Assembly: GCF_900114615.1 (NCBI RefSeq)
Contig: NZ_FOTS01000012.1
Location: forward strand, 1 to 64,000
Source: Pelosinus propionicus DSM 13327
GTDB lineage: Bacteria; Bacillota; Negativicutes; DSM-13327
Reading direction: 5' to 3'
Length of the DNA: 64,000 bases
The number at the start of each line of letters is the position of its first letter. Position 1 is the first letter of the stretch. A model generated the notes under the pieces. It ran no database searches. It saw only the letters and a program-made list of their open reading frames with translations, and had not been told where the DNA came from. Both the position numbers and the translations under genes were made by a program. Shown piece after piece: positions 31,193-54,365 of this stretch.

Positions 31193-33052
<1,860 letters not shown>

Positions 33053-33064
33053 CTAACCAATGTT

Positions 33065-33103
33065 ATAATATGATAAGTGCAGTAGATATGTGATTATGTT
33101 AAT
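33065..33103 (-). promoter_or_regulatory. Sigma-K-type promoter ATTAACATAATCAC-N17-CATATTATA for collagen gene 1
   Basis: On the coding strand this matches the AC-N17-CATANNNTA mother-cell consensus. The same 14-nt upstream motif and exact 17-nt spacer recur upstream of copies 2 and 3. Confidence 0.45.
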
Positions 33104-33179
33104 GATATAAAATATTGAGTCAATTGTATTCCATAGGAATTAGTGCTTTTATATAAAAGAAATGTTGAAACAAAGCTGT

Positions 33180-34856
<1,677 letters not shown>

Positions 34857-34930
34857 TAGTGAAAATTGCATAGAGAAAGCAGGCCTACGACCAAAATCGA
34901 GGCCTGCCTTGTTATGACATGCAATTGACC

Positions 34931-36924
<1,994 letters not shown>

Positions 36925-37137
36925 AAGAATTGTTTCATTTAAACTAACTATTCAATTTTTAATCTGAATGATATCACGATAGATTAAGTTAGATTGTATG
37001 CTATATTGAAAGCAACAATAACGAGTATGTTAATGAAATATGATGAAAGACATCAAATATAGATAGAGGAATGGAAGAATGCGCCGTTTTCCATTCCTCT
37101 ATCTTGTAGTGATATTGTAAGGCAGTTTTATAATTTT

Positions 37138-39240
<2,103 letters not shown>

Positions 39241-39491
39241 TTAAGAGTGTCTATTTAAGCAAATCATTAATTATATCGCCAGAGGATAATCAGTCTGCAG
39301 CTATTTTAAAGTAGTCTGTTTAAATTGGAATCGTAATAGAATAAGTGGAGTAAGACCTAATAAAAACAGGTAAAACTTTTGACAAACATAAAAAAGAAAA
39401 GTACAATAAATAAATGCTTGTGAGCGTTTGAGTTTCATGGAATACGACTTATTATTTTGTAGTAAATTATGAAGAAGTGAGGTTGAGAAAT

Positions 39492-39905
39492 ATGATTACA
39501 GTTCGAGAAAAGGTTCGCTTTGTCGAGACGGATATGATGGCTGTGGTACACCATGCCAATTATTTTCGCTGGTTTGAAATGGGGCGTGTAGAATACTTAA
39601 GGCAAGCAGGCATCTCGTTGCTTAAAATGATGGATGATGACATTGTTTTTCCAATTACCAGTGTGGACTGCCAATATCGCTCTTCTGCAAAATTTGATGA
39701 TATTATTCTCATAGAAACATCAATGACAGAAGTAACACCTGTAAAGATGATTTTTACTTATAAAGTGGTTCGTGAGGCTGATGGAGTGTTATTAGCGACA
39801 GGTAATACTCAAAATTTGTTTACCAATAAGCAGGGGAAAATTATCCGTTTGCCCAGTACATATTTTAATAAACTAAAAGAGTATTTTGAAAATGCAGGAC
39901 AGTGA
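39492..39905 (+). CDS. Hotdog-fold acyl-CoA thioesterase (4HBT/YbgC family)
   Basis: VRFVETDMMAVVHHANYFRWFEMGRVEYLR. Confidence 0.7.
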   Translation: MITVREKVRFVETDMMAVVHHANYFRWFEMGRVEYLRQAGISLLKMMDDDIVFPITSVDCQYRSSAKFDDIILIETSMTEVTPVKMIFTYKVVREADGVLLATGNTQNLFTNKQGKIIRLPSTYFNKLKEYFENAGQ

Positions 39906-39959
39906 ATGCATATAAGAAAATAGATTTAGATAGAATATTTTGTTAGGAGGTGCAGTCAC

Positions 39960-40757
39960 GTGAATGATAATGCACCAATTGGCATTTTTGATTCGGGAAT
40001 TGGCGGACTTACTGTAGTGAAAGAAATGATGGATATGATGCCAAGGGAGAATTTGATTTATTTTGGAGATACAGCACGAACTCCTTATGGATCTCGTCCA
40101 GAAGCGGAAATTCTTGAATTTATGCAGCAAATATTAGCTTTTTTTGCAGCGCAGAAGGTCAAAATGGCAGTAGTTGCTTGTAACACCATGACTGCCCTGG
40201 GATTAGAATGGATGAAAACTCAATATTCATTTCCTTTAGTTGGTGTGAACACTGGAGTGGAGTTAGCATTTGCTGCTGGCAAATGTAAAAAGGCAGGAAT
40301 CCTTGCTACACAAGCTACGATTGCTAGTGGAAGTCATAGTCGGGCAATTCGCAGTAAAGATACAACAGTACTCGTTTATCCTCAGGCATGTCCTAAATTG
40401 GTACCATTGATAGAGCGTGAGCAGGTGCAAGGAATAGAGATCGAACAGGCAACTGCTGAGTATGTGCTGCCTATGAAAAAGCTGGCAGTAAATGTCATTA
40501 TTTTAGGCTGTACTCATTATCCGTTTATAAGTTCGGTGATACAAAAAATCGCAGGTAAGGAAATTGAGATTATCGATCCGGCAAAAGAGACTGCAAAAGA
40601 GGCGCAGAAGATACTCTTTCAGAAGGGCCAAGTATCTGAAGAATGTGAAGGAAAAGTTCGCTTGTGTTTTTCTGCAGATGTGGAAAGAGCAAAAAGAATG
40701 GCAGAGATCATGTTTAATACTGAAAAAATAAATTTTGAATTAGTAACGTTAGAGTGA
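39960..40757 (+). CDS. murI: Glutamate racemase
   Basis: IGIFDSGIGGLTV and the second Cys-motif region GCTHYP. Confidence 0.85.
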   Translation: MNDNAPIGIFDSGIGGLTVVKEMMDMMPRENLIYFGDTARTPYGSRPEAEILEFMQQILAFFAAQKVKMAVVACNTMTALGLEWMKTQYSFPLVGVNTGVELAFAAGKCKKAGILATQATIASGSHSRAIRSKDTTVLVYPQACPKLVPLIEREQVQGIEIEQATAEYVLPMKKLAVNVIILGCTHYPFISSVIQKIAGKEIEIIDPAKETAKEAQKILFQKGQVSEECEGKVRLCFSADVERAKRMAEIMFNTEKINFELVTLE

Positions 40758-40837
40758 TTTGTTCCTGTGTGATGCACTTTTGAGGAAAATTTGGTATACT
40801 AGTTAAGGAAAAAACTTCTAGAGATGGGGGCCTTGGT

Positions 40838-41395
40838 GTGGAAATCTTGGTGACGATAGTAATAGTAGCTATAATTATGGCAGTAGCTGTGTGGTTGTTT
40901 ATTGCCAAACAAGGTGATGCCGACTTTGAATTTATGGTGAATGAGCGAACGGAATTTATAGTAATTGCAGAAACCGAAAAAACAGCTACTTTTTCTTGTG
41001 AAGTAGCATTTGTCAATAAGGGTTCACAGGATGGTACGATAATGGATGCTTTTCCTCGTCATTTGCTGCCTTATGAGCAATTTGATGAGGTTGAGGTAAA
41101 TTCTCGAATGGAGCTTGCTACAGCACTCCGAACCGATAATTATTTTGAAGCGGTGATTATTCCTAAAGGAACGGGTGGAACCGTTATTGTTACGGTTACA
41201 TTTACAGCAAAGACAGGCAATATAAAAGATGCTTTACAAAATTTATATGACTTGTCAGTAGATATGCCAATTGATATTGTGTATCAGATTGTGGCTCGTA
41301 CCCCGTGGTATATTCACAAAGCGCGTATGATTATGACTTGCGATGAAATCAATAGGGCTATGCAGGCAAAAGGTACTGCGAAAAGGGAGGACTAG
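40838..41395 (+). CDS. Hypothetical N-terminally membrane-anchored protein, first gene of a coupled operon
   Basis: TM ILVTIVIVAIIMAVAVWLFIA; no recognisable motif. The stop is 3 nt before the next start. Confidence 0.4.
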   Translation: MEILVTIVIVAIIMAVAVWLFIAKQGDADFEFMVNERTEFIVIAETEKTATFSCEVAFVNKGSQDGTIMDAFPRHLLPYEQFDEVEVNSRMELATALRTDNYFEAVIIPKGTGGTVIVTVTFTAKTGNIKDALQNLYDLSVDMPIDIVYQIVARTPWYIHKARMIMTCDEINRAMQAKGTAKRED

Positions 41396-41397
41396 TA

Positions 41398-42075
41398 ATG
41401 GCAGAACTTGAACTCAAACCAGTAGGTACGCGTATTTTAACAGATAAAGATAATATTGTAGATATGATCGAAAAGTATGCCAAAGAGGATATTGGTCCAG
41501 ATGATGTAGTATCGGTAGCTGAGAGTGTCGTTGCGATTACCCAGGGACGTGTGGCAAGGCCTGAAGATTTTAAAGTATGTTTTTTGGCGAAGATATTATG
41601 CCGCTTTGTACCTCAAAAGGGGAGTTTATCTAGTGTCTACGGCATGCAGTCTTTAATGGATGCTGAAGGGAAATGGCGTGTTTTATTTGCTATGATAATC
41701 GGTATGTTTGCTAAAATTGTTGGGAAGAATGGTGTGTTTTATGAGTTAGCAGGTTCGCATGCTGCTCTGGTTGATGATGTGACAGGTACGATGCCGCCTT
41801 TTGATAAATGTTTGGTATACGGGCCTTTGGAGGCAAATAGGGTAGCAGAAGAAATAAAACGACGATTGGGCTGCTATGGTGCAGCTGTAGCAGATGTAAA
41901 TGATTTAAAGCGAGCATTAGTAGTAGGTGCTTCAACAGGTCTTGATCCTAAGAAGTTAGCACATATTTTAATTGATAATCCTTTTGGTAATGCTTCTCAG
42001 CGGACACCAATCGTTATTATTAAAAATTATGCAGCAGTAGAGAGAAGGACAGAAAATCTTCTTTCTATGGAGTAA
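41398..42075 (+). CDS. CofE-like (F420-0:gamma-glutamyl ligase family) amide-ligase homologue
   Basis: DDVVSVAESVVAITQGR...DVTGT...VGASTGLD resembles the CofE fold motifs. No F420 pathway is evident in the window. Confidence 0.45.
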   Translation: MAELELKPVGTRILTDKDNIVDMIEKYAKEDIGPDDVVSVAESVVAITQGRVARPEDFKVCFLAKILCRFVPQKGSLSSVYGMQSLMDAEGKWRVLFAMIIGMFAKIVGKNGVFYELAGSHAALVDDVTGTMPPFDKCLVYGPLEANRVAEEIKRRLGCYGAAVADVNDLKRALVVGASTGLDPKKLAHILIDNPFGNASQRTPIVIIKNYAAVERRTENLLSME

Positions 42076-42180
42076 TTGATTAGCAAAGAGGATAGAATAC
42101 AGCTATCCTCTTTATTATTTTTGCTGTAAAATTAACTAATGAGTCTGCAAATTATGCAATTTATGTTTTGGAGGAATGAC

Positions 42181-43158
42181 ATGGCTAGTATTGGTATTAC
42201 TACAACCGTACCTGTGGAGATTATTTTAGCAGCCGGTAATGTACCAGTAGATTTAAATAATGTATTTATTACTGATAAAGAGGCCAATCGATTAGTAGAA
42301 GGAGCCGAAGATGCAGGTTACCCGCGGAATATATGCGGCTGGATTAAAGGCTTATATTCTGTAGTCGTAGAGAGGGGGAATATCGATACGGTACTTGCAG
42401 TTACCCAAGGAGACTGCAGTAATACGCATGCCTTAATGGAAACCTTGCAATTGGTAGGTGTAGAGACCATTCCCTTTGCATATCCTTTTGATCGGGATTA
42501 TGATCTTTTGAAATTGCAGATGGATAAATTAATTGCAGCTTTAAAGACAGATTGGAATCAGGTTATGGCTGTAAAAAAACGTTTAGATGGGGTCAGAAGT
42601 AAAATTGCTGAAATGGATCGCCTTACCTGGCAGGAAAATTTGGTTAGCGGCTGGGATAACCACTTATTCCAAGTGAGCTGCAGTGATTTTAATGGGAATG
42701 TGGACGAATTTGAGCAGGATATTGATCAGTTTCTACTAAAAACAAAATCTGCAAATGAATTTACAGAAGATATCCGTTTGGGATATATTGGTGTTCCGCC
42801 TATTTTTAATGATTTATATGATCATTTTGAAAAAATGGGAGCGCGGATTGTCTTCAATGAAGTGCAGCGGCAGTTCGCCATGCCTTATCAAGTTGAGGAT
42901 TTAGTAGAACAATATAGACTATATACCTATCCTTATGGTGTATTCCAGAGAATTGAAGATATTAAGGGAGAAATTGAAAAACGTAATTTGGATGGTATTG
43001 TGCATTATGTCCAAAGCTTCTGCTTCAGGCAGATTGAAGATATGATCTTTAGGGAAAAATTAGATATTCCTATACTAACCATCGAAGGAGATAAGCCGGG
43101 TAAGCTGGATGCGAGAACGAAACTTCGAATCGATAGTTTTTTGGAAATGCTGCGATGA
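42181..43158 (+). CDS. 2-hydroxyacyl-CoA dehydratase D-component-like (HgdB/YjiM-type) protein
   Basis: ATG 42181 after a GGAGG RBS. N-terminal region matches the HGD-D family with conserved Cys (GDCSNTH). Confidence 0.5.
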   Translation: MASIGITTTVPVEIILAAGNVPVDLNNVFITDKEANRLVEGAEDAGYPRNICGWIKGLYSVVVERGNIDTVLAVTQGDCSNTHALMETLQLVGVETIPFAYPFDRDYDLLKLQMDKLIAALKTDWNQVMAVKKRLDGVRSKIAEMDRLTWQENLVSGWDNHLFQVSCSDFNGNVDEFEQDIDQFLLKTKSANEFTEDIRLGYIGVPPIFNDLYDHFEKMGARIVFNEVQRQFAMPYQVEDLVEQYRLYTYPYGVFQRIEDIKGEIEKRNLDGIVHYVQSFCFRQIEDMIFREKLDIPILTIEGDKPGKLDARTKLRIDSFLEMLR

Positions 43159-43168
43159 GGTGAAAGAT

Positions 43169-43933
43169 ATGTTTTGTGGTATCGATTTAGGCAGTCGTAG
43201 TGTAAAGTTAGTTGTAATGGATCAAGACGGTGTCAATCATTCTGAAATTTTTGAAACGGTGCAGTTTTATCGAAACTATGGACAGCCTGGGGAAAATGGA
43301 TTAGTTGTTAACTTTGCCTCTGTGGGGGTAGGGGAATTTGACAAGGTGGTTGCTACTGGTTATGGGCGCAATACCATCAATATTGTAGGAGCTACTGTTA
43401 TTGCTGAATTAAAAGCACACGTGATAGGAGCTATATGGCAGACGGGACTTACTGATTTTACCTTATTGGATTTGGGTGGGCAGGATAGTAAAGTAATAAA
43501 AGTCCGTAATCGTAAAATGGTGGATTTTGCGACAAATGATAAATGCGCTGCCAGCACAGGACGATATTTAGAAAATATGGCAACGGTTCTCGGGATTAGT
43601 TTAGCAGAGCTTAGCAGTTATAAGGAAAATCCTGTAGAGTTGTCTGCAACTTGTGCTATTTTTGGAGAATCTGAGCTTATTGGACGCATTGTGGAAGGGT
43701 ATAGCGTTCCACAATTGGCAGCTGGCGTTAATTATACGATTTTTAAGAGAATCAAGCCGATGCTTCATTCTCTTGCAAGTGAAGTGATTGTTTTTACAGG
43801 AGGTGTGGCTTTAGGAAAAGCCATTGGACAAACCATATCTTCGGAACTTGGTGTAGAGGTTGTTGTACCCAAATATCCACAACTTAATGGAGCAATCGGT
43901 TGTGGGGTTTATTCCTGGGAAAAGAGGGGATAA
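43169..43933 (+). CDS. BadF/BcrA/HgdC-type ATPase (CoA-substrate-specific enzyme activase)
   Basis: MFCGIDLGSRSVKLVVMD...ATGYGR (ASKHA ATPase with cluster-helix motifs). Confidence 0.7.
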   Translation: MFCGIDLGSRSVKLVVMDQDGVNHSEIFETVQFYRNYGQPGENGLVVNFASVGVGEFDKVVATGYGRNTINIVGATVIAELKAHVIGAIWQTGLTDFTLLDLGGQDSKVIKVRNRKMVDFATNDKCAASTGRYLENMATVLGISLAELSSYKENPVELSATCAIFGESELIGRIVEGYSVPQLAAGVNYTIFKRIKPMLHSLASEVIVFTGGVALGKAIGQTISSELGVEVVVPKYPQLNGAIGCGVYSWEKRG

Positions 43934-43934
43934 T

Positions 43935-45599
43935 ATGTTCTTAGGGCTTGATGTAGGTGGAACATTTACGGATGGTGTGGTAGTAGCAGATGGGAAGATA
44001 GTCAGTATGGTTAAAGCTCCTACTACTAATGAAAATCTATTGCGATGTATATTGACAGTAGTAGATAAAATGGTGGAGGATATTGGTAGTAAGGCGTTTG
44101 AACGGATTGTATTATCCACAACAATTGTAACCAATGCGATAGTGGAAGGAAAGATTGACCAGGTTGCCTTATGTATTATGCCAGGACCAGGGATGAACAT
44201 AGCTGATATTCTACCAGTTGAGCCTTATATCTTATCTGGTTATATTGACCATCGTGGCCGAGAAATGGCTCAGCCGAGCAAAGAAGAAGTGCTGAGTGCT
44301 TGTCGCCATTTTGCTTCTTGTGATGTATTTGTTGTTTCTGGCAAATTTGCTGTTCGTAATCCTAATTTTGAGTCCGCAGTAGCGGATTGGATACAAGAAA
44401 AAGTTAGCCCTATGCATATAAGCAGAGGAGGAAAGGTTTCAGGAACACTCAATTTTTTAAGACGTACTAACTCAGCCTATTATAATGCAGCGGTATGGCG
44501 GCGCTTTAATGCTTTTGCTACGGCAGTAGAGGAAGCATTAACGATTCGTGGGGTTTACAGTCCTGTTTTTGTGTTAAAAGCTGACGGAGGCACACTACCT
44601 TTATCAGTAGCCAGAAACTGTCCTATAGAGGCTATTTTTACTGGACCCGCTGCCAGTACCATCGGTGTTATGGGTATGAATGGGGATGCTGCCGTTTCTG
44701 GAATTTCTCTTGATATTGGGGGTACTACTACCGATATTGCATTGTGGCAAAAGGGAAGACCTGCTTTAGCAAAAGAAGGGGCAGCTGTTGCTGGACATAG
44801 AACTGGAGTTCAAGGATTTCGCCTTAAGTCTGCCGGAATCGGCGGTGATAGTTTGGTCTTCTGGGAGAATCATGTATTGAAAGTAGGACCAATGCGTCAT
44901 GGCCCTGCTATGGCGGCAGGAGGTCCTAAGCCAACTGTGACTGATGCTATGGTAGCGGCGGGGTTCATTGATTTTGGCGATCGTGCCTTAGCAGTAAAGG
45001 CAATGAAACAGCTTGCTTTACAAGGACAAAGCCCAGAAGAGATGGCGAGTCAAGTAGTAGATAAGGCAGTGAATGATATTTGTCAGGCGATAGCAGATTT
45101 GTTAGATGAGCAAGCTGCTGAACCTTTATATCATGTAGAAGAAATTGTTTATGAAAGAAAATTCGTCTTAGAAACTATAATTGGTGTAGGTGGCGGAGCG
45201 GCTGGTCTTGTACCTCTGATTGCTAAAAAGCTGGGAATTAGCTATACACTTCCTGAGAATGGGAAGGTTGCTAATGCCTTTGGTGCGGCGGTAGCAAGGC
45301 CAACTATTGCTATTACTCTTCGTGCTGATACCGCAGAAGGATATTATACCGTTCCAGAATTAGGGATCAAAAATAGACTGCCTCGAGGGAATTCTTCCTT
45401 ACAAAATATGTATGAGTTAGCAGAAAAACATTTGGCAGAATTAGCCCAGAGAAATAGTATTTTTGCTGGTGAAACGCAAATCGTACAATCAGAGGAATTT
45501 AATATGGTTCGTGGTTTTACTTCAGTGGGAAAAATTATGACCTGCCGCTTGCAGATAAAACCTGGCGTGCTGCAGTATGGTGAGGAGGAGTTATGTTGA
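43935..45599 (+). CDS. Hydantoinase/oxoprolinase-A-like (ATP-dependent, acetone-carboxylase superfamily) protein
   Basis: MFLGLDVGGTFTDGVV N-terminus typical of the HyuA family. 555 aa from the ATG at 43935 (RBS AAAGAGGGGA). Confidence 0.6.
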   Translation: MFLGLDVGGTFTDGVVVADGKIVSMVKAPTTNENLLRCILTVVDKMVEDIGSKAFERIVLSTTIVTNAIVEGKIDQVALCIMPGPGMNIADILPVEPYILSGYIDHRGREMAQPSKEEVLSACRHFASCDVFVVSGKFAVRNPNFESAVADWIQEKVSPMHISRGGKVSGTLNFLRRTNSAYYNAAVWRRFNAFATAVEEALTIRGVYSPVFVLKADGGTLPLSVARNCPIEAIFTGPAASTIGVMGMNGDAAVSGISLDIGGTTTDIALWQKGRPALAKEGAAVAGHRTGVQGFRLKSAGIGGDSLVFWENHVLKVGPMRHGPAMAAGGPKPTVTDAMVAAGFIDFGDRALAVKAMKQLALQGQSPEEMASQVVDKAVNDICQAIADLLDEQAAEPLYHVEEIVYERKFVLETIIGVGGGAAGLVPLIAKKLGISYTLPENGKVANAFGAAVARPTIAITLRADTAEGYYTVPELGIKNRLPRGNSSLQNMYELAEKHLAELAQRNSIFAGETQIVQSEEFNMVRGFTSVGKIMTCRLQIKPGVLQYGEEELC

Positions 45600-46912
45600 A
45601 TGCTCAAAAGTTAGGACTGGTATTTTTTCCAGCTTTTGACTGGGCGATTAGCCCAACTCATCCTGAGAGGGAGGAACGTTTGTTATATACCCGTGACCAG
45701 ATTGTAGAAGAAGGACTTCTGGATATGCCATCGATACGGGAATATAAGCCTAAAATCGCTAACCTTCAGGATATTGAAAGAGTGCATGTGGGAGTTCCTG
45801 ACATATTTTCTTTAATTACCAATGCTCATTTAGTGTCAGCAGGTGGAGCGATTGCAGCTGCTGATGCGGTAATAAAGAAGGAAGTGCAGCGAGCTTTTGC
45901 TTTAGTACGTCCGCCAGGACATCATGCCATGCGCATTGTTCATGGGACTCGTGGATTTTGTACCATTAATATGGAAGCAATTATGATAGAATATTTACGG
46001 AAGACCTATGGTATTGGTAAAGTTGCCATCGTTGATACAGATGTACATCATGGTGATGGCACTCAAGATATTTTTTATCATGACCCTGACACCCTATTTA
46101 TTTCCTTTCATCAGGATGGGCGGACCTTATATCCGGGGACTGGTTTTACCAATGAAATGGGGAGTCCTAATGCTCTTGGTACTACAGTGAACATACCTTT
46201 GCCGCCAGGAACAGGTGACTGCGGTCTTCATGAAGTGCTAGATCACCTGATTATGCCTATTCTAGGAGAATTTAAACCTGAAATAATTATTAATTCCGCC
46301 GGTCAGGATAATCATTTTAGTGATCCTTTAGCGAATATGGCAATTACAGCGCAGGGGTATGCGCGATTAGCCGATACATTAAAAGCTGATATTGCCGTAT
46401 TGGAAGGCGGTTATTCGATTGAAGATGCTTTGCCTTATGTAAATGTAGGGATTGTATTAGCTATGGCAGGAATGGATTATAGCAGAGTCATTGAACCTAA
46501 TATTGTAGATTGTCCTTCTCAAGCCTCTTCTGTCACTCATTATATAAAAGAAATCATCAAGGAACGCCAAGATATGTGGGGGAGAAAAGAGAAACTGAAG
46601 CGTGAAGCAATTATGAAGCATGGTGAATTCTGGCAGACAGAACGCAGTATCTATTATGATGATGAAGGTATTAACGAACAGCAGAAAGAAAGAATACGCT
46701 TATGCTCTCATTGTTCTGGATATGTAACAATTGAAACGAAGGCGCGCAGCAGTCTTCATTATAAAACAGCTTATATTGGTATGATTCCTCAGAAAGCTTG
46801 CCCAGCTTGTCTAAAAGCAGCTTACAATGAGGTACATACAGCAAAGAAAAAAGGAGAATATCAGCACTATATGGTGCAAAATAAACAGGAAGATCGGCTG
46901 GAAAGATTGTAA
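45593..46912 (+). CDS. Histone-deacetylase-family (AcuC/arginase-deacetylase fold) amidohydrolase with C-terminal Cys4 zinc ribbon
   Basis: HHGDGTQDIFYHDPDTLFISFHQ together with the DxH motifs; C-terminal CSHCSGY...CPAC. Confidence 0.7.
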   Translation: MLNAQKLGLVFFPAFDWAISPTHPEREERLLYTRDQIVEEGLLDMPSIREYKPKIANLQDIERVHVGVPDIFSLITNAHLVSAGGAIAAADAVIKKEVQRAFALVRPPGHHAMRIVHGTRGFCTINMEAIMIEYLRKTYGIGKVAIVDTDVHHGDGTQDIFYHDPDTLFISFHQDGRTLYPGTGFTNEMGSPNALGTTVNIPLPPGTGDCGLHEVLDHLIMPILGEFKPEIIINSAGQDNHFSDPLANMAITAQGYARLADTLKADIAVLEGGYSIEDALPYVNVGIVLAMAGMDYSRVIEPNIVDCPSQASSVTHYIKEIIKERQDMWGRKEKLKREAIMKHGEFWQTERSIYYDDEGINEQQKERIRLCSHCSGYVTIETKARSSLHYKTAYIGMIPQKACPACLKAAYNEVHTAKKKGEYQHYMVQNKQEDRLERL

Positions 46913-47080
46913 CAATGTGTATAAAATAGAACTAATACCTTATCTGTGCTAAACTATAGAGTTAGTGAGGAGTTTTTGACTTGTAAGGTGGCACAACGAA
47001 GTAATTCGGAAAAAAGACTGCTGAAGTAGCAGAATTTAAATGCAGATGCAGTACTATATATTGTAGGAGGAGTCAAATAG

Positions 47081-47824
47081 ATGAACCGACCAGATGGCCG
47101 AAAGGCTGATAAAATGCGTCCATTAAAAATAACTCGTAATTATTTAAAATACCCGGAAGGATCGGTGCTGATAGAGGTAGGCAATACAAAGGTAATATGC
47201 GCTGCCACAATTGAGGATAAAGTACCACATTTTATGAAGGGTTCAGGTGAAGGATGGATCACGGCTGAATATTCTTTACTGCCTCGTTCTACGCAGGTGC
47301 GTAATATTCGTGAGTCTGCTAAAGGGAAAATAACAGGAAGAACTCATGAAATACAACGGCTAATTGGCAGAGCATTGCGAAGTGTGGTTGATTTAAAAGC
47401 TTTAGGAGAAAAAACAATTTGGATTGATTGTGATGTTATACAAGCAGATGGCGGTACTCGAACAGCAGCGATTACAGGATCGTTTGTCGCTTTGGTTGAT
47501 GCAGTCAATAGTATTTATACCAATCATGAGAAACCTTTCCCTGTTAAAGAGTTCTTAGCAGCGGTTAGCATCGGTGTTGTAAAAGATGCAGTGGTTGCTG
47601 ATTTGTGTTATGAAGAAGATTCAGCAGCGATAGTGGATATGAACGTTGTAATGACTGGGAGCGGCCAATTTGTAGAAGTGCAGGGAACAGGTGAAAAACG
47701 TCCTTTTAGTAGGCAGGAGCTAAATGAAATGCTGGCCGTTGCCGAAAAGATGGTAGGGGAATTAATTGATTATCAAAAAGATATTCTAGGACCTTTATCG
47801 TGGAAAATCGGACGTGAGCCATGA
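47081..47824 (+). CDS. rph: Ribonuclease PH
   Basis: [21 protein letters not shown]...; GGTRTA motif. Confidence 0.9.
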
Positions 47825-48417
47825 AAGAAGTAGTGGTAGCAACTACGAATAAAGGGAAAGTTGCCGAGATTGCCTTAGCTTTGGCTAACTTGCCTGTCAA
47901 AGTGTTAGATCTAAGTGATTTTAGTGATATTCCTGAGGCTGTGGAAGATGGTGATAGCTTTATGGCAAATGCCCAGCTAAAAGCTAAGCATTATGCCCAC
48001 CATACGGGAAAGGCCTGCTTAGCAGATGATTCTGGACTAGAAGTGGATGCATTAGGAGGCGCACCAGGCATTTATTCTGCACGCTTTGCCGGGGAGGATG
48101 CTAATGATGCTGCAAATAATCAAAAATTGTTAGCAGAATTAATTGGTGTTGTCCCTGAAAAGCGGACTGCTAGATTTCGTTGTGTTTTGGCTCTTGCTGA
48201 CATTGATGGGACGATCATGACTGCCGATGGAGTAAGAGAAGGAATTATTGGTCAAGACTTGCGTGGTTTAGGCGGATTTGGATACGATCCATTGTTTTAT
48301 ATGCCTGAAATGGAGAAAACCATGGCTGAATGTTCAAAGAGTGAAAAAAACGATATTAGCCATAGAGGACAAGCGCTGAAGATTATGACCAAGATACTGG
48401 GAGAGTATTTAAAATGA
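47821..48417 (+). CDS. rdgB: dITP/XTP pyrophosphatase (RdgB/HAM1)
   Basis: [12 protein letters not shown]...FGYDPLF. Confidence 0.85.
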
Positions 48418-48902
48418 AAATAGGGGTCATGAGTGATACCCATGGTGACCAGGCGGCTGTCAGGCAAGGGATAAAAGCAGCAGGTTCTATGGATATGTGG
48501 CTGCATGCAGGAGATTATAGCCAAGATGCAAACTATTTAGCTAAGTTAGTCAATGTTCCTGTATTTGCAGCGAGAGGAAATTGTGATGGGCAGGCAGCAG
48601 CCAAAATTGATGAATTTGTAGAAGTGGCTGGTAAGAAAATATGGATAACCCATGGGCATCGCTATGGTGTAAAGCAAGGTGTTAGTCAATTGGTAGAATG
48701 GGGCAGGCATTATGAGGTGGACATTGTAATTTATGGACATACTCATATCCCAGATAGCCACTGGGAAGAAAATTTACTGGTTTTCAATCCTGGCAGTGCT
48801 GCTGAACCTCGCTCTGGATATGGTACTTGTGGTATTTTAACGATTGATCATGAAGGGAAAATAGCAGGGGAGATTCTTACAGTGGGTAAGAAAGTAAAAT
48901 GA
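48414..48902 (+). CDS. YfcE/YsnB-like metallophosphoesterase
   Basis: [12 protein letters not shown]...GNCD...GHTH motifs. Shares the rph-rdgB-phosphoesterase order with B. subtilis. Confidence 0.75.
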   Translation: MKIGVMSDTHGDQAAVRQGIKAAGSMDMWLHAGDYSQDANYLAKLVNVPVFAARGNCDGQAAAKIDEFVEVAGKKIWITHGHRYGVKQGVSQLVEWGRHYEVDIVIYGHTHIPDSHWEENLLVFNPGSAAEPRSGYGTCGILTIDHEGKIAGEILTVGKKVK

Positions 48903-48982: not shown

Positions 48983-50233
48983 TCAATCATAATTCTTGGT
49001 ATAAGCTACTTGTAATACTTCATCTGGCAGTTCATTTTCCCAACGCGCTACTACTACAGCAGCTACGCAGTTACCAATTAGATTGCAAGCCGTACGAGCC
49101 ATATCAAGTATACGGTCAACTCCAAGAATAATACCAATACCTTCTACTGGCAAACCAAAAGCTGCTGCGGTACCGGCAATAACGATCAAAGAAGCACCGG
49201 GCACTGCTGCAATGCCTTTTGTAGACATCATCAATGTTACAAGCATAATTAGTTGAGTTTCGATTGGGAAGGGGATATTATAAACTTGAGCGATAAAAAT
49301 GACAGCTAATGCACTATACAAGGTTGAACCATCTAAGTTAAATGTATAACCTGTCGGCAGCACGAAGGTAACAATATGCTTTGGAACGCCAAATTGCTCT
49401 AATTTTTCCATTGCAATTGGCAATGCTGCTTCGCTGGAGGCAGTGGAGAAAGCAATCAAGATAGGCTCTTTTATAGCTCTTAAGAGCTGGAAGAAATTCA
49501 TACGGATAATTAGTGAAGCACAGGCTAATAACAAAACAATAAAAAGTACTAGAGCAAAATATAAGGAACCGATCAACTTCGCTAAAGGAATTAGCATACC
49601 CAAGCCGAATTTACCTACTGTATAAGAAATTAGAGCAAAAACACCAATAGGAGCCAATTTCATGACATACCAAGTGAATTTGAACATAATCTCAGCAACG
49701 CTGATTGCTAATGTAACGGTTGGTTTGCCCTTTTCTCCCATAGCGGCAGCTGCTACACCGAAGAAAGTAGAGAATAAAATGATTTGCAGCATGTCGCCGC
49801 GTCCCATGGCATCTACCACATTGGTAGGTACAATGTTAACGATCATTTGCGTCATATCAATGGTCTTTTTTGCTGCAGCTGCTGCAGAACTCACATCAGC
49901 ACCAGTTGCAATTGCGACACCTGCACCAGGCTGGAATACATTTGCGACAGCCAGTCCAACGAAGAGAGCCAAGGTTGTAGCGACTTCAAACCAAATAATT
50001 GATTTTGCGCCTAAACGACCTAGTTTCTTAAAGTCACCAGTACCTGCAATACCCATAATTAATGAACTGAAAATTAAAGGTACCACAATCATTTTAATCA
50101 TACGGATAAACGTGTCACCGACAGGCTTTAATGCTTGTCCATAGACAGGGAAGATATAACCGAACACAACACCTAGAATAAGAGCAATAAAAATTTGAGT
50201 TGTTAGGCCTATTCCTTTTTTTTCTTTTTCCAT
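48983..50233 (-). CDS. Dicarboxylate/amino acid:cation symporter (DAACS, GltP/GltT family)
   Basis: 416 aa, multiple TM and re-entrant loop motifs (GxxxNxDG-like, VTLMMSTKGIAAVPGASL). Confidence 0.8.
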   Translation of the reverse strand: MEKEKKGIGLTTQIFIALILGVVFGYIFPVYGQALKPVGDTFIRMIKMIVVPLIFSSLIMGIAGTGDFKKLGRLGAKSIIWFEVATTLALFVGLAVANVFQPGAGVAIATGADVSSAAAAAKKTIDMTQMIVNIVPTNVVDAMGRGDMLQIILFSTFFGVAAAAMGEKGKPTVTLAISVAEIMFKFTWYVMKLAPIGVFALISYTVGKFGLGMLIPLAKLIGSLYFALVLFIVLLLACASLIIRMNFFQLLRAIKEPILIAFSTASSEAALPIAMEKLEQFGVPKHIVTFVLPTGYTFNLDGSTLYSALAVIFIAQVYNIPFPIETQLIMLVTLMMSTKGIAAVPGASLIVIAGTAAAFGLPVEGIGIILGVDRILDMARTACNLIGNCVAAVVVARWENELPDEVLQVAYTKNYD

Positions 50234-50290
50234 AAACGAATCCTCCTATAAATTTTGATTACTTGGAAACACCAAGAGATAAAGTAATCA

Positions 50291-50345
50291 AGGGGATTGC
50301 CTTGATTACCTTTACTGCACTGCACAGTAAAGAGAAAATATTTTT
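50291..50345. promoter_or_regulatory. Two adjacent inverted repeats (GTAATCAAGG-N6-CCTTGATTAC; CTTTACTG-N7-CAGTAAAG) in the symporter/kinase divergent region
   Basis: Read from the sequence. Candidate response-regulator operators. Confidence 0.3.
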
Positions 50346-50506
50346 AATGATGAAATACTTTCTTCTCCTAGTATAGAATGTAACCATCTGCTAAACTACA
50401 GAAAACAACTGAAAAAAATTATTATGCAATTCAGAATTATATAAGAATAGCTTTTTAGGACGATGAGGATTATAATGTTGTATGTCGAATTTTGCATTTA
50501 CAATGA

Positions 50507-51904
50507 GTGGCTAAATTGTTCACTAAAGGAGGGAGTTTTCTGTTATCTACTTTGCTAAAAAAAGTGCATGATGTCTTTGGAGGTATACAAGATTTATTTC
50601 ATAAATATAAATCCCTTATCAATACGATATTGCTTGTTTCCTTAACTGGTATTGTATATATTTACCCTTTTGGCAGCTATTTTCGTTTTACCCTAGCGAT
50701 TGTATTGTTAATCGTCTTTTTATTATATTTTGAGCAGTTTCCCATTTTATCTGGTACAATCTTGACAGGAGCAGTGATTGTATTTTTTCGTACGACAACG
50801 GATTTTTTAATAACCGGTCATGATTATAAGACTGCTATCATGTATAACTTACCTTCCCTGGCATACTATATCTCTTTTGCCGTACTATTTTACTTATTTT
50901 CCATTCGAAAGTACAAAGATCACATCTTGGTCCTTATTCTCTTATTGAGCGTGGTTGATATCCTCAGTAATATGGTCGAACTTTTTTGTCGTTCTGAATT
51001 GATTGGTGCAAAATTTGCAGTGGTTTTTCCAAGTATTGTAGTTGTGGCTATTGTGCGGGCTAGTTTAGCCTTTGTTGGGTATTATGCGTTAAAGCAATAT
51101 CAATCCTTTATTCTAGCTAATGATCAGGCAAAGCGCTATATCGAGCAAACTCTCATGGTTGCTAAATTGAAAAGCGAGCTATTTTATCTAGAAAAATCAT
51201 CTCAAGATATTGAAAATGTTATGGAGAAAGCCTATTGGCTTTATAAGCAATTAAACTCTAAGGTACAATTTGATAGAGAGCAAGAACATTTGCCTGCAGA
51301 GAATGCTCTTGCAGTGGCAAGAGAAATTCACGAGATAAAGAAAGATTACTATCGAGTCATAACTGGAATTGAAAATATTCTTAGACCCTCAAGCAGGGCT
51401 CAGAAGATAAAACTATCAGAAATATTGTTTATCATTGAACAAAATACAATACGGTATTTGAATGTAATCGATAAAAAGATTGATATCACCTATGAGTTAG
51501 CGGATGATTTTCTTACAGACAAGCATTATACTTTAGTTTCCATATTAGATAATCTCATTATGAACTCAATTGAGGCCTGTGGTGATGACGGAATTATTAA
51601 GGTAATTGAAACCAGTTCCAATGACATTATCTATTTTTGTGTGGAAGACAATGGAGTTGGTATTGATGAACAAGAATTTGAACTCATTTTTAATCCTGGT
51701 TATTCTACAAAATTTTCGCCGCGCACTGGTAAAATTTCAACAGGACTAGGCTTGGCCCATGTGAAAAATTACATTGAGCTATTAGGTGGAACCATTCGGG
51801 TGGAATCGCAGCCTGATGTATGTACTCGGTTTTTAATTGCGTTACCTCGCTTGGGTGTACTGATTTCTAATAAGGGTACTGATTTTTCTGTACCTTACTC
51901 TTAA
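50507..51904 (+). CDS. Sensor histidine kinase, GlnK/CitA/DcuS-class (SpoOB-type helical dimerisation domain plus HATPase), multi-TM N-terminus
   Basis: C-terminal HATPase motifs (NLIMNSIEA, EDNGVGI, GLGLA). The helical domain before it and the 5-6 TM N-terminus resemble B. subtilis GlnK (YcbA). Confidence 0.65.
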   Translation: MAKLFTKGGSFLLSTLLKKVHDVFGGIQDLFHKYKSLINTILLVSLTGIVYIYPFGSYFRFTLAIVLLIVFLLYFEQFPILSGTILTGAVIVFFRTTTDFLITGHDYKTAIMYNLPSLAYYISFAVLFYLFSIRKYKDHILVLILLLSVVDILSNMVELFCRSELIGAKFAVVFPSIVVVAIVRASLAFVGYYALKQYQSFILANDQAKRYIEQTLMVAKLKSELFYLEKSSQDIENVMEKAYWLYKQLNSKVQFDREQEHLPAENALAVAREIHEIKKDYYRVITGIENILRPSSRAQKIKLSEILFIIEQNTIRYLNVIDKKIDITYELADDFLTDKHYTLVSILDNLIMNSIEACGDDGIIKVIETSSNDIIYFCVEDNGVGIDEQEFELIFNPGYSTKFSPRTGKISTGLGLAHVKNYIELLGGTIRVESQPDVCTRFLIALPRLGVLISNKGTDFSVPYS

Positions 51905-51964
51905 CCTCATATATTGGAGTAAACGATTCATAATAAAGTATTTTTATAAGAAAGTGGTGCGAAT

Positions 51965-52825
51965 ATGTCGTTACGTTTTGTGATTGTTGATGATGATCTT
52001 GTGATTTGTAGAATTCTACAAAAAATTATTGAGCAAAATCAATTAGGTACTGTTGTTGAGCAATGCAATGACGGCTTAAAGGGTGAGAGGATCATTCGAG
52101 AATACCAGCCGGATATTGCATTGGTTGATTTATTGCTGCCAGGCCAAGATGGAGTGGAACTCATTGAAAAGGTGTCTGCTGCAGCGACCAATACTTCGTT
52201 TATCATGGTTTCCCAAGCCACGAGCGAACAATTAATTACGAAAGCTTATGAAGCTGGGATTGAGTTTTTTATTCATAAACCCATTAATGTCTTAGAAACG
52301 GTATCTGTGATTAATAAAGTGCAAGAGCATCGTAAGTTAAAACAGATTATGTCTTTGATGCATCAAACCATTTCTCAATATCCTAATATTCGTCCTGCAT
52401 CTGAGGATGGGACGAAAAATATGCAAAAGACTCGCATTTACAAAGTCTTTTCTGATTTGGGGATTATTGGTGAGGCGGGTGTAAAAGATATTTATCGAAT
52501 GGTACAGCTAATCCTGAAAAAAGGTATAGAAAGTAAGTCCTATCAGTTATGTGATATTTATCAGCAAATGTCAGAAGGAATGGAGCAAGATGCGAAAGCA
52601 ATTGAGCAGCGAGTACGTCGTGCCACAACGAAAAGCTTACACAATCTTGCCAATTTGGGGATTGATGATTATTACAACGAAATCTTTCAATCCCATAGTT
52701 CTTCTCTGTTTGATTTTAAAGAAGTGCGTCAAGAAATGAATTACATTTTAGGAAAAAGCCAATACCGCGGAAAAATTAATGTTAAAAAGTTTATTGAAGG
52801 GCTATTATTTATTGCAGAAGTCTGA
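51965..52825 (+). CDS. Response regulator with REC domain and GlnL/YcbB-type C-terminal domain
   Basis: REC motifs (VIVDDD, ALVDLLLPG, MVSQ). The C-terminal half is not a LuxR/OmpR/LytTR type. Confidence 0.65.
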   Translation: MSLRFVIVDDDLVICRILQKIIEQNQLGTVVEQCNDGLKGERIIREYQPDIALVDLLLPGQDGVELIEKVSAAATNTSFIMVSQATSEQLITKAYEAGIEFFIHKPINVLETVSVINKVQEHRKLKQIMSLMHQTISQYPNIRPASEDGTKNMQKTRIYKVFSDLGIIGEAGVKDIYRMVQLILKKGIESKSYQLCDIYQQMSEGMEQDAKAIEQRVRRATTKSLHNLANLGIDDYYNEIFQSHSSSLFDFKEVRQEMNYILGKSQYRGKINVKKFIEGLLFIAEV

Positions 52826-52841
52826 TGGATAAGATGGTTAA

Positions 52842-52873
52842 GTGGGGGACTACAACATGCCGGTTGTAGTCCC
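52842..52873 (+). terminator. Hairpin terminator after the two-component operon
   Basis: GGGGGACTACAAC-N5-GGTTGTAGTCCCC. Confidence 0.5.
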
Positions 52874-53034
52874 CTTAGGCTATTTGTCAAAAAGAATATA
52901 CTTAAATTAGTAGTTTATTGAATATTCTTAATTTTTTGAGTATGTTGTGGTTTTTTAAAAGGATTTTGGATAGCGTTGTACGAAGTAGCATCTTGATTGT
53001 CCTATGACAATTAAATTTTATAAGAGGTGGTATT

Positions 53035-54114
53035 ATGAAGAAACGTATTTACGGTATTTTTGTAACTCTTTGTCTCTTGGTGCTGTCTTTACAAGTGGTT
53101 GTTTTTGCGGCAGAAACTCCAGAAAAACCTAATGTTGTCATTCTTGCAACAGGAGGAACTATTGCCGGTGCAGGTGTTAGCAGTACTACAACCGTCGGGT
53201 ATACAGCTGCTGTTACTGCTGTAGACAAACTTATTTCGAATGTTCCCGAATTGGCTAAGGTTGCAAATGTACGCGGAGAACAAGTTTTTCAAATTGCCAG
53301 TGAAAGTATAACCATGGACAATTGGTTAACGCTGGCCAAACGTGTCAATCAGCTTCTTGCTCAAGATAATGTAGACGGCATCGTTATTACTCATGGGACT
53401 GATACATTAGAAGAAACCGCATATTTTCTTGATCTGGTAGTAAAAAGTGAAAAACCTGTTGTACTTGTTGGTTCCATGCGTCCTGGTACAGCAATGAGTG
53501 CTGATGGGCCTCTGAATTTATATCGTGCTGTTATTCTGGCTGGCACGAAAGAAGCTGCCGGCAGTGGTGTCATGGTAATGCTCAATGATACGATTCATTC
53601 CGGGCGTGAGGTAACAAAAACTATAACTGATCGTGTTGATACGTTTCAAGCGCCAATCATCGGTGCAATAGGTGTATTTACTGGTGATAAACCTGTATTC
53701 TATCGTCAATCGTTACGCAAAAATACGGTGGCGACGGAATTTGATGTCACTAACCTGACGTCATTGCCTCGTGTCGATATTGTGTATCATTATGCCGGCA
53801 ATGCTGGAACCATGATTGATGCTGCTGTAAATGCTGGTGCAAAAGGGATTGTTCATGCAGGAACTGGTAACGGCAGTATTGGAAAAGCGGAATATCCTGC
53901 AGTTGAAAATGCTCTTAAAAATGGTGTAGTTATTGTAAGGAGTGCCCGTGTTGGCAGTGGGATTATCGCTCGTAATGGGGAAGCGAATGATGACAAGTAT
54001 GGTTTTATTGCCAGCGATAACTTGAATCCCCAAAAGGCACGCGTTTTACTAATGCTGGCTCTTACCAAAACTTCTGATGTAAATGAAATTCAACAAATGT
54101 TCTGGAAGTATTAA
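53035..54114 (+). CDS. ansB: Periplasmic type II L-asparaginase
   Basis: Signal peptide; ILATGGTIAG (active-site Thr), HGTDT. Confidence 0.85.
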   Translation: MKKRIYGIFVTLCLLVLSLQVVVFAAETPEKPNVVILATGGTIAGAGVSSTTTVGYTAAVTAVDKLISNVPELAKVANVRGEQVFQIASESITMDNWLTLAKRVNQLLAQDNVDGIVITHGTDTLEETAYFLDLVVKSEKPVVLVGSMRPGTAMSADGPLNLYRAVILAGTKEAAGSGVMVMLNDTIHSGREVTKTITDRVDTFQAPIIGAIGVFTGDKPVFYRQSLRKNTVATEFDVTNLTSLPRVDIVYHYAGNAGTMIDAAVNAGAKGIVHAGTGNGSIGKAEYPAVENALKNGVVIVRSARVGSGIIARNGEANDDKYGFIASDNLNPQKARVLLMLALTKTSDVNEIQQMFWKY

Positions 54115-54365
54115 AATATTATTGTATTGAATTTGATAAATGCAATGAACCGCAGGGATAGATGGTGCTATGTGTCTGTGAGCACGTTAGCACCGCTAAA
54201 ATCCATGCGGTTTATTTAAAAAAAAGGTAGCAGTAGTTTTTTGAATATTTATAATACTTTCTGTATGATGCTGTGAGGTGGGTTGCATTTTTGCGAAAAA
54301 TATGACATAATTAATCATGGTTAATAAATTGGATTAATGGATTAAGCCAATTGTGGGGTGCAATC

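Follow-up and report, generated by a model that had tools for sequence, protein, structure and literature searches.

A gene cluster downstream of murI in Pelosinus propionicus DSM 13327: a probable composite of three modules around a putative ATP-driven iron-sulfur system

Introduction

Do the six co-oriented genes that follow the glutamate racemase gene murI in Pelosinus propionicus DSM 13327 (Negativicutes, Sporomusaceae) form one dedicated pathway, and what could the dehydratase-like protein and the activase at their centre be doing? We address these questions for positions 40838-46912 (genes g1 to g6) of a stretch of 64,000 nucleotides (contig NZ_FOTS01000012.1, positions 1 to 64,000 of the forward strand), which as a whole is called the window. 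An earlier note, made from the letters of the window alone, had described this region as a single translationally coupled five-gene operon that matches no characterised pathway. In the literature we likewise found no characterised pathway for this gene set or for any of its members, nor a characterised operon of this composition, and the CofE-like and HgdB-like assignments of that note both hold at the level of the fold. The picture of one operon serving one pathway, however, has to be revised. We consider it reasonably probable that three modules (g1-g2, g3-g4 and g5-g6) have come together here in a lineage-specific composite, the core of which, g3-g4, is an ATP-driven iron-sulfur (Fe-S) system, because the modules are separable across lineages and a hairpin parts g2 from g3.

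ATP-driven electron-transferring ATPases of this kind, the archerases, carry out reactions that are among the most strongly reducing in biology, for example the reduction of aromatic rings and dehydration by way of ketyl radicals. To our knowledge, no physiological substrate is known yet for single-subunit relatives such as the double-cubane protein (DCCP).

Sequence comparisons

The g3 family is compact: a search of 1.84 billion cluster representatives gave 381 clusters at E-values up to 1e-3. When one genome per species was scanned, at least 584 species turned out to have relatives, of which the 80 closest loci were retrieved with flanks of at most 8 kb and tabulated by tblastn and clustering of open reading frames (ORFs), which were simple longest-ORF calls. 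Six metagenomic contexts were examined in addition to these genome loci.

Gene organisation of the locus

The region comprises six ORFs on the + strand and one hairpin:

40838-41395, + strand: g1, protein of 185 amino acids with an N-terminal transmembrane helix, of no known family
41398-42075, + strand: g2, CofE-fold protein of 225 amino acids, a highly divergent member of the F420_ligase superfamily
42085-42124, + strand: terminator-like hairpin AAAGAGGATAG-loop-CTATCCTCTTT followed by a U-run (terminator scan)
42181-43158, + strand: g3, HGD-D family protein of 325 amino acids (PF06050, 127 bits)
43169-43933, + strand: g4, HgdC/HadI-type activase of 254 amino acids (BcrAD_BadFG; TIGR00241, 183 bits against a cutoff of 125)
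43935-45599, + strand: g5, hydantoinase-A/oxoprolinase-A-like ASKHA ATPase of 554 amino acids (Hydant_A_N, Hydantoinase_A)
45593-46912, + strand: g6, zinc amidohydrolase of the class II HDAC/acetylpolyamine-amidohydrolase type, 439 amino acids (PF00850, 233 bits)

All six are kept as genes in related genomes, as judged from the comparison of fetched loci, and are, therefore, not chance ORFs; a public assembly contig (L001) holds an identical copy of the locus. The count of five genes in the earlier note, which itself named six proteins, is thus one too low. Its junction between g1 and g2 was confirmed, with a stop codon at 41393-41395 and an ATG at 41398 that leave a spacer of 2 nucleotides, and so was the overlap of g5 and g6, where the ATG at 45593 and the TGA at 45597-45599 lead to 7 shared nucleotides. 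The overlaps that had been proposed at 43109-43158 and 43860-43933, on the other hand, are artefacts of taking the longest ORF. The supported start of g4 is the ATG at 43169, 10 nucleotides past the g3 stop, backed by a ribosome-binding site, by homologues and by the gene call in contig L001, and the supported start of g5 is the ATG at 43935, 1 nucleotide past the g4 stop; some gene calls use the GTG at 43902, which results in a form of 565 amino acids and an overlap of 32 nucleotides. Both the ATG at 43935 and that of g3 at 42181 are preceded by ribosome-binding sites and match homologues or independent gene calls. With its GGAGG site and the 325-amino-acid form found in all homologues, position 42181 is most likely the start of g3, not 42139, and the spacer between g2 and g3 measures 105 nucleotides.

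Within this spacer the terminator scan found a hairpin of 11 bp with 4 GC pairs and a subsequent U-run, and each of the 13 Negativicutes loci that were examined has a hairpin and U-run between g2 and g3. Its core, GAGGRTAR-loop-YTATCCTC, was matched in 12 fetched loci of several Negativicutes genera (including L001, the window's own locus), among which compensatory changes occur at the base of the stem. It is unique to this junction and was encountered neither elsewhere in the window, where 0 occurrences are expected, nor elsewhere in the fetched loci. No Rfam family matches the hairpin, even at E-values up to 1, and a riboswitch or other known RNA at this position was rejected on this ground. 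The hairpin marks a transcription-unit boundary or an attenuator. Continuous translational coupling is consequently limited to g1-g2 and to g3-g4-g5-g6, and the supposed single operon therefore consists of two separate, or at least differentially expressed, units. Since its sequence is more conserved than that of a plain terminator would be, the hairpin may also be a regulatory or processing element. The one Rfam match in the region, to the family Histone3 (histone 3' UTR stem-loop) within g4 (43782-43827, - strand; 22.5 bits against a threshold of 34, E 0.012), is in our view due to chance.

These junctions bear on the earlier view that all six genes constitute one dedicated Negativicutes pathway, by which a small molecule or a cofactor would be made or altered. 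The spacers of 2, 10 and 1 nucleotides (g1/g2, g3/g4 and g4/g5) and the 7-nucleotide overlap of g5 and g6 speak for such a pathway, whereas the conserved hairpin and U-run that part g2 from g3 do not; its phylogenetic side is considered below.

A short HgdB-like protein and its activase

The g3 protein matches the HGD-D family and has the fold of HgdB, HadC, BzdN and DCCP, so that the proposed HgdB-like character is borne out at the fold or superfamily level. It contains four cysteines, three of which (C52, C79 and C281) are conserved in the family and line up with cysteines that ligate the clusters of HadC and DCCP, whereas C166 is not conserved. The three conserved cysteines are consistent with one [4Fe-4S] cluster with an open iron site. 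As judged from its sequence g3 is a single-cubane protein, because the 7-Cys motif of DCCP is missing and the DCCP model (NF040772) gives 40.2 bits against a cutoff of 350; DCCP itself was rejected as an identity for g3 on the same grounds. As the product of a single gene g3 is presumably a homodimer, and it would act as the electron-accepting catalytic component. The statements on cofactor and oligomer rest on homology and on AlphaFold models from shallow alignments (at least 73% identity). The protein is 97% identical to its counterpart in P. baikalensis, and identities between classes amount to 60-75%. Distant family members (P0176, P0177, P0178 and P0248; 30-39% identity) have lost the conserved cluster cysteines; in other lineages they may thus represent paralogues devoid of a cluster, or partner subunits.

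The earlier note had remarked on the absence of an HgdA partner. Neither tblastn with g3 nor Pfam scans of the other large ORFs revealed a g3 paralogue in the window, and every one of the 80 related loci has a single HGD-D gene. On the basis of these scans of the window, a classical HgdAB dehydratase with a distantly encoded partner was rejected.

The assignment of g4 as an HgdC-type activase is sound. It retains both cluster-binding cysteines, aligns end to end with HadI, HgdC and DCCP-R (4EHT, 1HUX, 7YYL_E), and its cluster-cysteine motifs NDKCAASTGR and SATCAIFGESE align with those of HadI and HgdC. These features identify g4 as a predicted ASKHA ATPase ("archerase") with a [4Fe-4S] cluster bridging the dimer. 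The gene is adjacent to g3 in 56 out of 78 loci, and many homologues are fusions of ~600 amino acids with one HGD-D and one BcrAD_BadFG domain, which ties g3 to g4 and favours a homo-oligomeric catalytic component.

The g3-g4 pair belongs to the superfamily of benzoyl-CoA reductases, 2-hydroxyacyl-CoA dehydratases and double-cubane proteins (BCR/HAD/DCCP), but it can be equated neither with the classical 2-hydroxyacyl-CoA dehydratases nor with the double-cubane proteins. With the former (HgdAB+HgdC, HadBC+HadI, FldBC+FldI, LcdAB) it shares the HGD-D fold of the catalytic component, the dedicated HgdC-type ATP-dependent activase, represented by g4, and the three-Cys [4Fe-4S] site per subunit, for which the g3 sequence is the evidence. 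However, these dehydratases have an alpha/beta pair of HGD-D subunits while the g3 locus has one HGD-D gene, their subunits comprise about 375-420 amino acids against 325 for g3, and the similarity is marginal (E 0.19 with the single sequence, 2e-13 with the family profile). Among the 11 genes from 39477 to 48902 no CoA-transferase was found with Pfam and NCBIfam, which makes a classical acyl-CoA substrate less favoured. The presence of a thioesterase gene was considered as a sign of a CoA substrate and rejected, since we take this gene to be part of an old thioesterase-murI synteny, presumably that of the B. subtilis ysmA-racE...rph region.

DCCP and DCCP-R (C. hydrogenoformans CHY_0487/0488; the E. 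coli YjiM/YjiL group) resemble g3-g4 in combining a single HGD-D gene with an activase gene, but g3 is about 95 residues shorter, mostly at the N-terminus. In DCCP-type proteins six cysteines of the 7-Cys motif are ligands of an [8Fe-9S] cluster (PMC7317905). Class I benzoyl-CoA reductases (BzdNOPQ/BcrABCD/MbdONQP) are heterotetramers of two different HGD-D and two different BcrAD_BadFG subunits, where g3-g4 has one of each, and BzdN holds an [8Fe-9S] cluster with six cysteines compared to the three conserved ones of g3. Moreover, the Bzd/Bcr equivalog models score only 71-96 bits at the g3/g4 locus against cutoffs of 313-578, and no aromatic-degradation genes were seen in the g1-g6 locus.

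Three modules in an old synteny block

The genes on both sides of g1-g6 are of a housekeeping nature:

39477-39905, + strand: 4HBT thioesterase of the YbgC/FadM type (Pfam 4HBT; TIGR00051, 89.8 bits)
39960-40757, + strand: glutamate racemase gene murI (TIGR00067, 214 bits against a cutoff of 146.65)
47081-48902, + strand: rph (RNase PH), rdgB and a YfcE-type phosphodiesterase gene (TIGR01966, 374 bits; PRK14822, 256 bits; TIGR00040, 100 bits)

This thioesterase-murI...rph-rdgB-phosphodiesterase arrangement matches what we take to be the old ysmA-racE...rph-ysnA-ysnB block of Bacillus. In Negativicutes loci the thioesterase gene keeps its place ahead of g1 or murI; a promoter-like site (TTGACA-17-TACAAT at 39379-39407, 11 of 12 positions matching in the promoter scan) precedes it, and the gene is a possible start of the operon. 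Among the 80 loci, murI is located upstream of g3 in 38, and rph, rdgB and phosphodiesterase genes are located downstream of g3-g4 in ~40.

Loci with the full set of six genes are confined to Negativicutes (Pelosinus, Dendrosporobacter, Sporomusa and metagenome-assembled genomes, MAGs), and in two Negativicutes MAGs (L013 and L014) the set is reduced to g1-g4. The arrangement in Desulfotomaculia, Desulfitobacteriia, Desulforudis and their relatives is murI-g3-(g4)-MBL hydrolase-rph-rdgB (MBL, metallo-beta-lactamase fold) without g1, g2, g5 and g6, and g3-g4 is found without the other four genes in most lineages. Only the g3-g4 module, often fused, is widespread, i.e., in the at least 584 species mentioned above. 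The pairs g1-g2, g3-g4 and g5-g6 are insertions into the ancient synteny block. The Pelosinus cluster is thus a composite, in which an ancient core, g3-g4, has been joined by two lineage-specific pairs, g1-g2 and g5-g6.

The idea of a single pathway would assign ligation to g2, radical dehydration or reduction to g3-g4, ATP-dependent activation to g5 and deacylation to g6. It gains from the co-linearity of the six genes in about 10 Negativicutes species of several genera and from the lack of an independent context for g5-g6 in the loci compared. However, L013 and L014 keep g1-g4 in the absence of g5-g6, most lineages have g3-g4 without the others, and elsewhere (L027) a g2 homologue occurs without g3. 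We regard a single pathway as unlikely, and the same holds for this sequence of steps.

Two further ideas on the block were discarded. In Desulfotomaculia the MBL-fold gene after g3-g4 was considered as a functional partner, but it scores as RNase Z or cyclic-nucleotide phosphodiesterase-like and is not orthologous to the MBL gene beside an archaeal g3 homologue; it probably belongs with rph. A sporulation function comes to mind because the closest g3 homologues are all from spore-formers and lie near GerM-like and amidase genes, and because the window contains BclA-like genes, but distant homologues are also found in unrelated surroundings and, together with CetZ, on a contig of archaeal origin.

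Association with glutamate fermentation genes

The strongest lead to a function, which the earlier note had missed, is that g3-g4 is recurrently embedded in gene clusters for fermenting glutamate by the methylaspartate pathway, a pathway that is also represented in the window:

54351-63740, + strand: methylaspartate cluster with genes for GntR, glmS, mutL/glmL, glmE, methylaspartate ammonia-lyase, a P-loop protein, citD, citE and citF (Pfam)

This cluster lies 7.4 kb downstream of g1-g6 and was recognised by Pfam (B12-binding; MutL, 592 bits; Met_asp_mut_E, 768 bits; MAAL_N/C; HpcH_HpaI; CitF, 623 bits), with citD read from the sequence; no mesaconase gene was seen in it before the end of the window. 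In 19-23 other loci the same genes are direct neighbours of g3-g4. At least one methylaspartate-pathway gene occurs within 8 kb in 23 of the 80 loci. In 19 loci the methylaspartate ammonia-lyase gene (mal) is located directly upstream of g3 and preceded by glmS-glmL-glmE. Loci of the Desulfosporosinus type read GntR-murI-glmS-glmL-glmE-mal-g3-g4, followed by genes of a two-subunit class I fumarase type (mesaconase-like FumAB) or by citDEF-citCXG. In loci of the Desulfotomaculum/Desulforamulus and Carboxydocellales type, mal is upstream of g3-g4, and genes for a DUF1446/AtuA-like protein and a P-loop protein of 310 amino acids, which usually accompany mal, are downstream. There are thus at least two distinct arrangements, and several lineages, in which g3-g4 has pathway genes to either side. 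In Dendrosporobacter (L007) the glm cluster starts right after rph-rdgB-mpe.

Kronen and Berg (2015) drew "MurI" and "HgdBC" in such clusters in the legend of their Fig. 4 without discussing them (PMC4682846), and beyond this unexplained "HgdBC" we found no literature trace of the g3-g4 family.

Distant g3 homologues (41-52% identity) were reached through metagenome contigs. One of these (L084) has a g3-g4 fusion followed by FumA-FumB and an aminotransferase, two (L085 and L086) have g3-g4 near aconitase, isocitrate dehydrogenase and citrate synthase, and in L091 g3 lies downstream of an HMGL-like synthase and aconitase. The association of g3 homologues with di-/tricarboxylate metabolism and Fe-S hydro-lyases is recurrent, not universal.

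Two companions of the pathway genes were noted. The P-loop protein of 310 amino acids encoded in the window (59975-60907) has a Walker-A-like motif, GGPGAGKS, gave no Pfam or NCBIfam match and starts 2 nucleotides past the mal stop. Homologues accompany mal in L016, L020, L033, L034 and L036, on the far side of g3-g4, and the protein looks like an uncharacterised pathway accessory. Genes for DUF1446/AtuA-like proteins follow directly after g3-g4 in L016 (9958-11656), L020 (4005-6507) and L067 (9097-10482); those of L016 and L020 have a small downstream ORF, and the L020 copy is fused to the MBL-fold protein. This protein is another uncharacterised companion of the methylaspartate pathway, and in E. 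coli O157:H7 and Dictyoglomus a gene of the DUF1446 family likewise follows mal (PMC4682846).

Between the g6 side and the glm cluster of the window (48983-54114), a GltP/DctA-type carrier of dicarboxylates or amino acids (- strand), a histidine kinase with a response regulator and a secreted type II L-asparaginase are encoded, and the region of 25 kb that includes murI is rich in functions related to Glu, Asp and Asn. A search for an operator motif shared by the glm promoter regions and the intergenic regions of the g-cluster yielded only AT-rich 12-mers at roughly chance frequency.

Possible mechanism and role of g3-g4

Homology with the HgdC, HadI and DCCP-R systems (PMC7317905, PMC9351452, PMC11971306) is the basis for a tentative mechanism. 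The g4 dimer with its bridging [4Fe-4S] cluster would be reduced by ferredoxin or flavodoxin, would hydrolyse ATP and would pass a low-potential electron on to the [4Fe-4S] cluster of g3. The latter protein, presumably homodimeric, would hold one [4Fe-4S] cluster on three cysteines with one iron free for the substrate, which resembles HadB and the [4Fe-4S]-OH2 site of BzdO (PMC11971306). A carbonyl or thioester substrate bound at the free iron would be converted to a ketyl-type radical, after which an alpha-substituent might be eliminated or a net reduction might follow. From the genomic context we favour a glutamate-derived C4/C5 dicarboxylate or its thioester as the possible substrate. The present comparisons show the folds, the cluster-ligand cysteines, the g3-g4 fusions, the lack of an HgdA-type partner, the phyletic spread and the gene neighbourhoods, from which the homodimer, the path of the electron and the chemistry are inferred.

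Four enzymes, glutamate mutase, methylaspartase, mesaconase and citramalate lyase, are regarded as making up the whole of the methylaspartate route. We propose, as a tentative idea to which we attach only a low probability, that g3-g4 is an unrecognised ATP-consuming Fe-S component of this route. Its reaction could be a novel one, of a radical or low-potential kind, with mesaconate, citramalate or a similar C5 dicarboxylate or the thioester of such an acid, or it could keep labile Fe-S and B12 enzymes of the route in the reduced state.

In a rival view g3-g4 is no metabolic enzyme at all and serves the ATP-driven reductive maintenance of neighbouring cofactors that are labile to oxygen or oxidation, for example the [4Fe-4S] clusters of hydro-lyases of the mesaconase/fumarase/aconitase type or the cobalamin of glutamate mutase. 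Fe-S hydro-lyases are indeed encoded beside g3-g4 (FumA/FumB in 9 genome loci and L084; aconitase in L085/L086 and L091/L092), glutamate mutase and the MutL chaperone are encoded upstream in 16-19 loci, and ASKHA proteins that reductively activate corrinoid proteins in an ATP-coupled manner form an established class (PMC7317905). However, in all characterised relatives HGD-D itself is catalytic or electron-storing, and delivery of the electron is left to the activase alone (PMC7317905, PMC11971306), which leaves g3 without an obvious function in repair. Furthermore, many loci have no hydro-lyase or mutase nearby. It seems, therefore, very unlikely that maintenance is the true role.

Alternatively, the link with glutamate may be merely positional: g3-g4 would be an old resident of the murI-rph block with an unrelated housekeeping substrate, and the glutamate genes would have been recruited beside murI independently. 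This is in line with the commonest gene order, murI-g3-(g4)-MBL-rph-rdgB without glm genes, where the neighbours (GerM-like, SH3-amidase, L,D-transpeptidase-like) are related to cell wall and sporulation, and with the high conservation of g3 between classes noted above. It is less easily reconciled with two arrangements in which pathway genes flank the pair (mal upstream with FumAB or citDEF downstream, and mal upstream with the DUF1446 and P-loop protein genes downstream), with the three loci in which no murI was detected (L033, L034 and L036), and with the fused homologues far from murI that still adjoin FumA/FumB. A purely positional link thus appears somewhat unlikely.

Several observations weigh against our reading of g3-g4 as the core of a composite cluster and as a partner of glutamate fermentation. 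In 57 of the 80 loci no methylaspartate gene is present within the fetched 8 kb, and pathway clusters of C. tetani, other Clostridia and E. coli O157:H7 have been described without HgdBC-like genes (PMC4682846); taken together, this implies that neither partner requires the other. Some distant homologues have unrelated contexts (L083, CN_hydrolase; L087, archaeal MBL-GAPDH-CetZ; L090, radical SAM), and Desulforudis, L044 and several other loci are without an adjacent activase. The association could also represent inherited synteny with murI, the 80 closest loci being phylogenetically clustered. The homodimer, the cluster type and the chemistry are drawn from homology and models. The known methylaspartate pathway, moreover, is chemically complete without a low-potential step. 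Finally, the strict co-linearity of the six genes in Sporomusaceae and the tight g4/g5/g6 junctions also fit one pathway.

The g1-g2 module

The first gene encodes a membrane-anchored protein, as had been proposed, and gave no Pfam or NCBIfam match. It is directly upstream of g2 in 12 loci (35-93% identity), and among the loci seen g1 was encountered in Negativicutes only. The description of g2 as CofE-like is tenable at the fold level, the match to PF01996 (F420_ligase; 31.5 bits against 25) being weak but above threshold. Although g2 shares the fold of CofE, the F420-0:gamma-glutamyl ligase (2PHN, 2G9I), it scores 21.7 bits against a cutoff of 274 with the CofE equivalog NF009809. The profile search against CofE structures in the PDB gave an E-value of 0.27, and the sequence alignment extends over the N-terminal 70-100 residues only. 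In addition, CofE is found in the context of F420 biosynthesis, whereas no F420 genes were seen in the g1-g6 locus with Pfam and NCBIfam, and g2, unlike CofE, is paired with a membrane-anchored protein.

The g1-g2 pair is nearly confined to Negativicutes among the loci seen. The sole g2 homologue from outside this group in the fetched loci is that of L027, with 41% identity, and lies on the - strand (13890-16854) in the run YkuD L,D-transpeptidase - Amj lipid II flippase - g2-like - pyruvoyl-dependent arginine decarboxylase, which hints at a role of the CofE-fold family in cell wall or polyamine metabolism.

The polyamination of peptidoglycan at D-Glu is established and is a hallmark of Negativicutes (PMC10628300, PMC12826042), and in the literature on it we found no gene assigned to this modification. 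We therefore considered that g1-g2 may act in the cell envelope, apart from g3-g6, by attaching cadaverine or putrescine to the alpha-carboxyl of the D-Glu in peptidoglycan. The position of g1-g2 directly after the glutamate racemase gene, its near restriction to Negativicutes, the CofE fold as a type of amide-bond-forming ligase that targets glutamyl carboxylates, the location of the L027 homologue between the Amj flippase and the arginine decarboxylase, and g6 as an HDAC of the acetylpolyamine-amidohydrolase type would all agree with this function. It is, however, purely contextual with one outside data point (L027), and, by analogy with D-iGlu amidation, a MurT-like Mur ligase would be a more obvious candidate. 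An envelope role of this kind thus has only a slim chance of being correct. That g1-g2 is the missing ligase for polyamines on peptidoglycan D-Glu in Negativicutes is a proposal separate from the participation of g3-g4 in glutamate fermentation and less likely than it, and we think it quite improbable.

The g5-g6 module

The hydantoinase-like nature of g5 is confirmed by its Hydant_A_N (PF05378, 90 bits) and Hydantoinase_A (PF01968, 145 bits) domains. Both domains of HyuA, the ATP-binding ASKHA part in the hydantoinase/oxoprolinase/acetone carboxylase family (HyuA/HyuB, OplAB, caprolactamase), whose members activate amides and carbonyls at the expense of ATP, are thus present. However, g5 scores far under every equivalog cutoff of this family (best NCBIfam match caprolactamase alpha, 105 against 1000), and its PDB matches span residues 103-450 only. 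The protein is 100% identical to one recorded under the name of Pelosinus propionicus. Whereas HyuAB-type systems have a catalytic HyuB subunit, none was found at the g5 locus, nor did the scanned ORFs of the window include one, the smaller ORFs not having been scanned exhaustively. A MutL/GlmL-type chaperone was also considered for g5 and rejected: in BLASTP with the MutL of the window only an 18-residue phosphate-binding motif aligned.

For g6 the assignment as an HDAC-like protein with a Cys4 ribbon is supported. It contains all catalytic motifs and a C-terminal CxxC...CxxC, and its motifs RPPGHHA, DTDVHHGDGTQ, SAGQDNHFSDPL and LEGGY align with the catalytic residues of HDAC6 (CD1 and CD2). 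Like other class II HDAC-like proteins (HDAH, acetylpolyamine amidohydrolase, HDAC6/10), g6 has retained the catalytic Tyr, the His-His dyad and Asp, His and Asp as zinc ligands, and it gives 153-224 bits with the solved members. It differs from them by an additional conserved C-terminal part of ~140 amino acids, in which the Cys4 motif is located (conserved in 9 homologues), and by its translational coupling to a HyuA-like ATPase.

Both genes occur only in Negativicutes loci. As an add-on of this group coupled to g4, g5-g6 would combine ATP-dependent activation with amide hydrolysis of the same metabolite or a precursor of it; from the chemistry of the two families alone, g5-g6 plausibly acts on the metabolite of g3-g4.

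Other features of the window

Four large genes on the - strand (31193-39231; 609, 523, 630 and 697 amino acids) encode proteins with collagen-like G-x-T triplets (GPT/GAT) and globular C-termini, which resemble BclA-type exosporium proteins; they explain an island of 48-53% GC in a genome of ~38% GC. A c-di-GMP-I riboswitch (19068-19152; 69 bits against 35) precedes a run of + strand genes (19334-29694), which has a gene of the UDP-glucose dehydrogenase type and one for a large polysaccharide deacetylase among its members and is probably a c-di-GMP-controlled exopolysaccharide operon. An RtcB RNA ligase gene (- strand) divergent from the gene of a WYL-domain protein (13554-16183) forms a typical RNA-repair regulatory pair unrelated to g1-g6, and a TonB-dependent receptor encoded in the window fits a diderm Negativicute.

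Implications

The picture of a single exotic pathway is corrected by these results, and the CofE-fold, HyuA-like and HDAC-like add-ons become objects of study in their own right. The g3-g4 pair represents a third architecture, in which a short three-Cys HGD-D protein encoded by a single gene is combined with an activase; it is widespread in anaerobic Firmicutes, strongly conserved and unstudied. If g3-g4 does take part in the methylaspartate route, it would be, among single-cubane homodimers of the BCR/HAD/DCCP superfamily, the first with a physiological role, and, if the link with glutamate is real, a textbook pathway would contain an overlooked energy-consuming component. The placement of g3-g4 in glutamate-fermentation operons provides a concrete hypothesis for genetics and anaerobic biochemistry.

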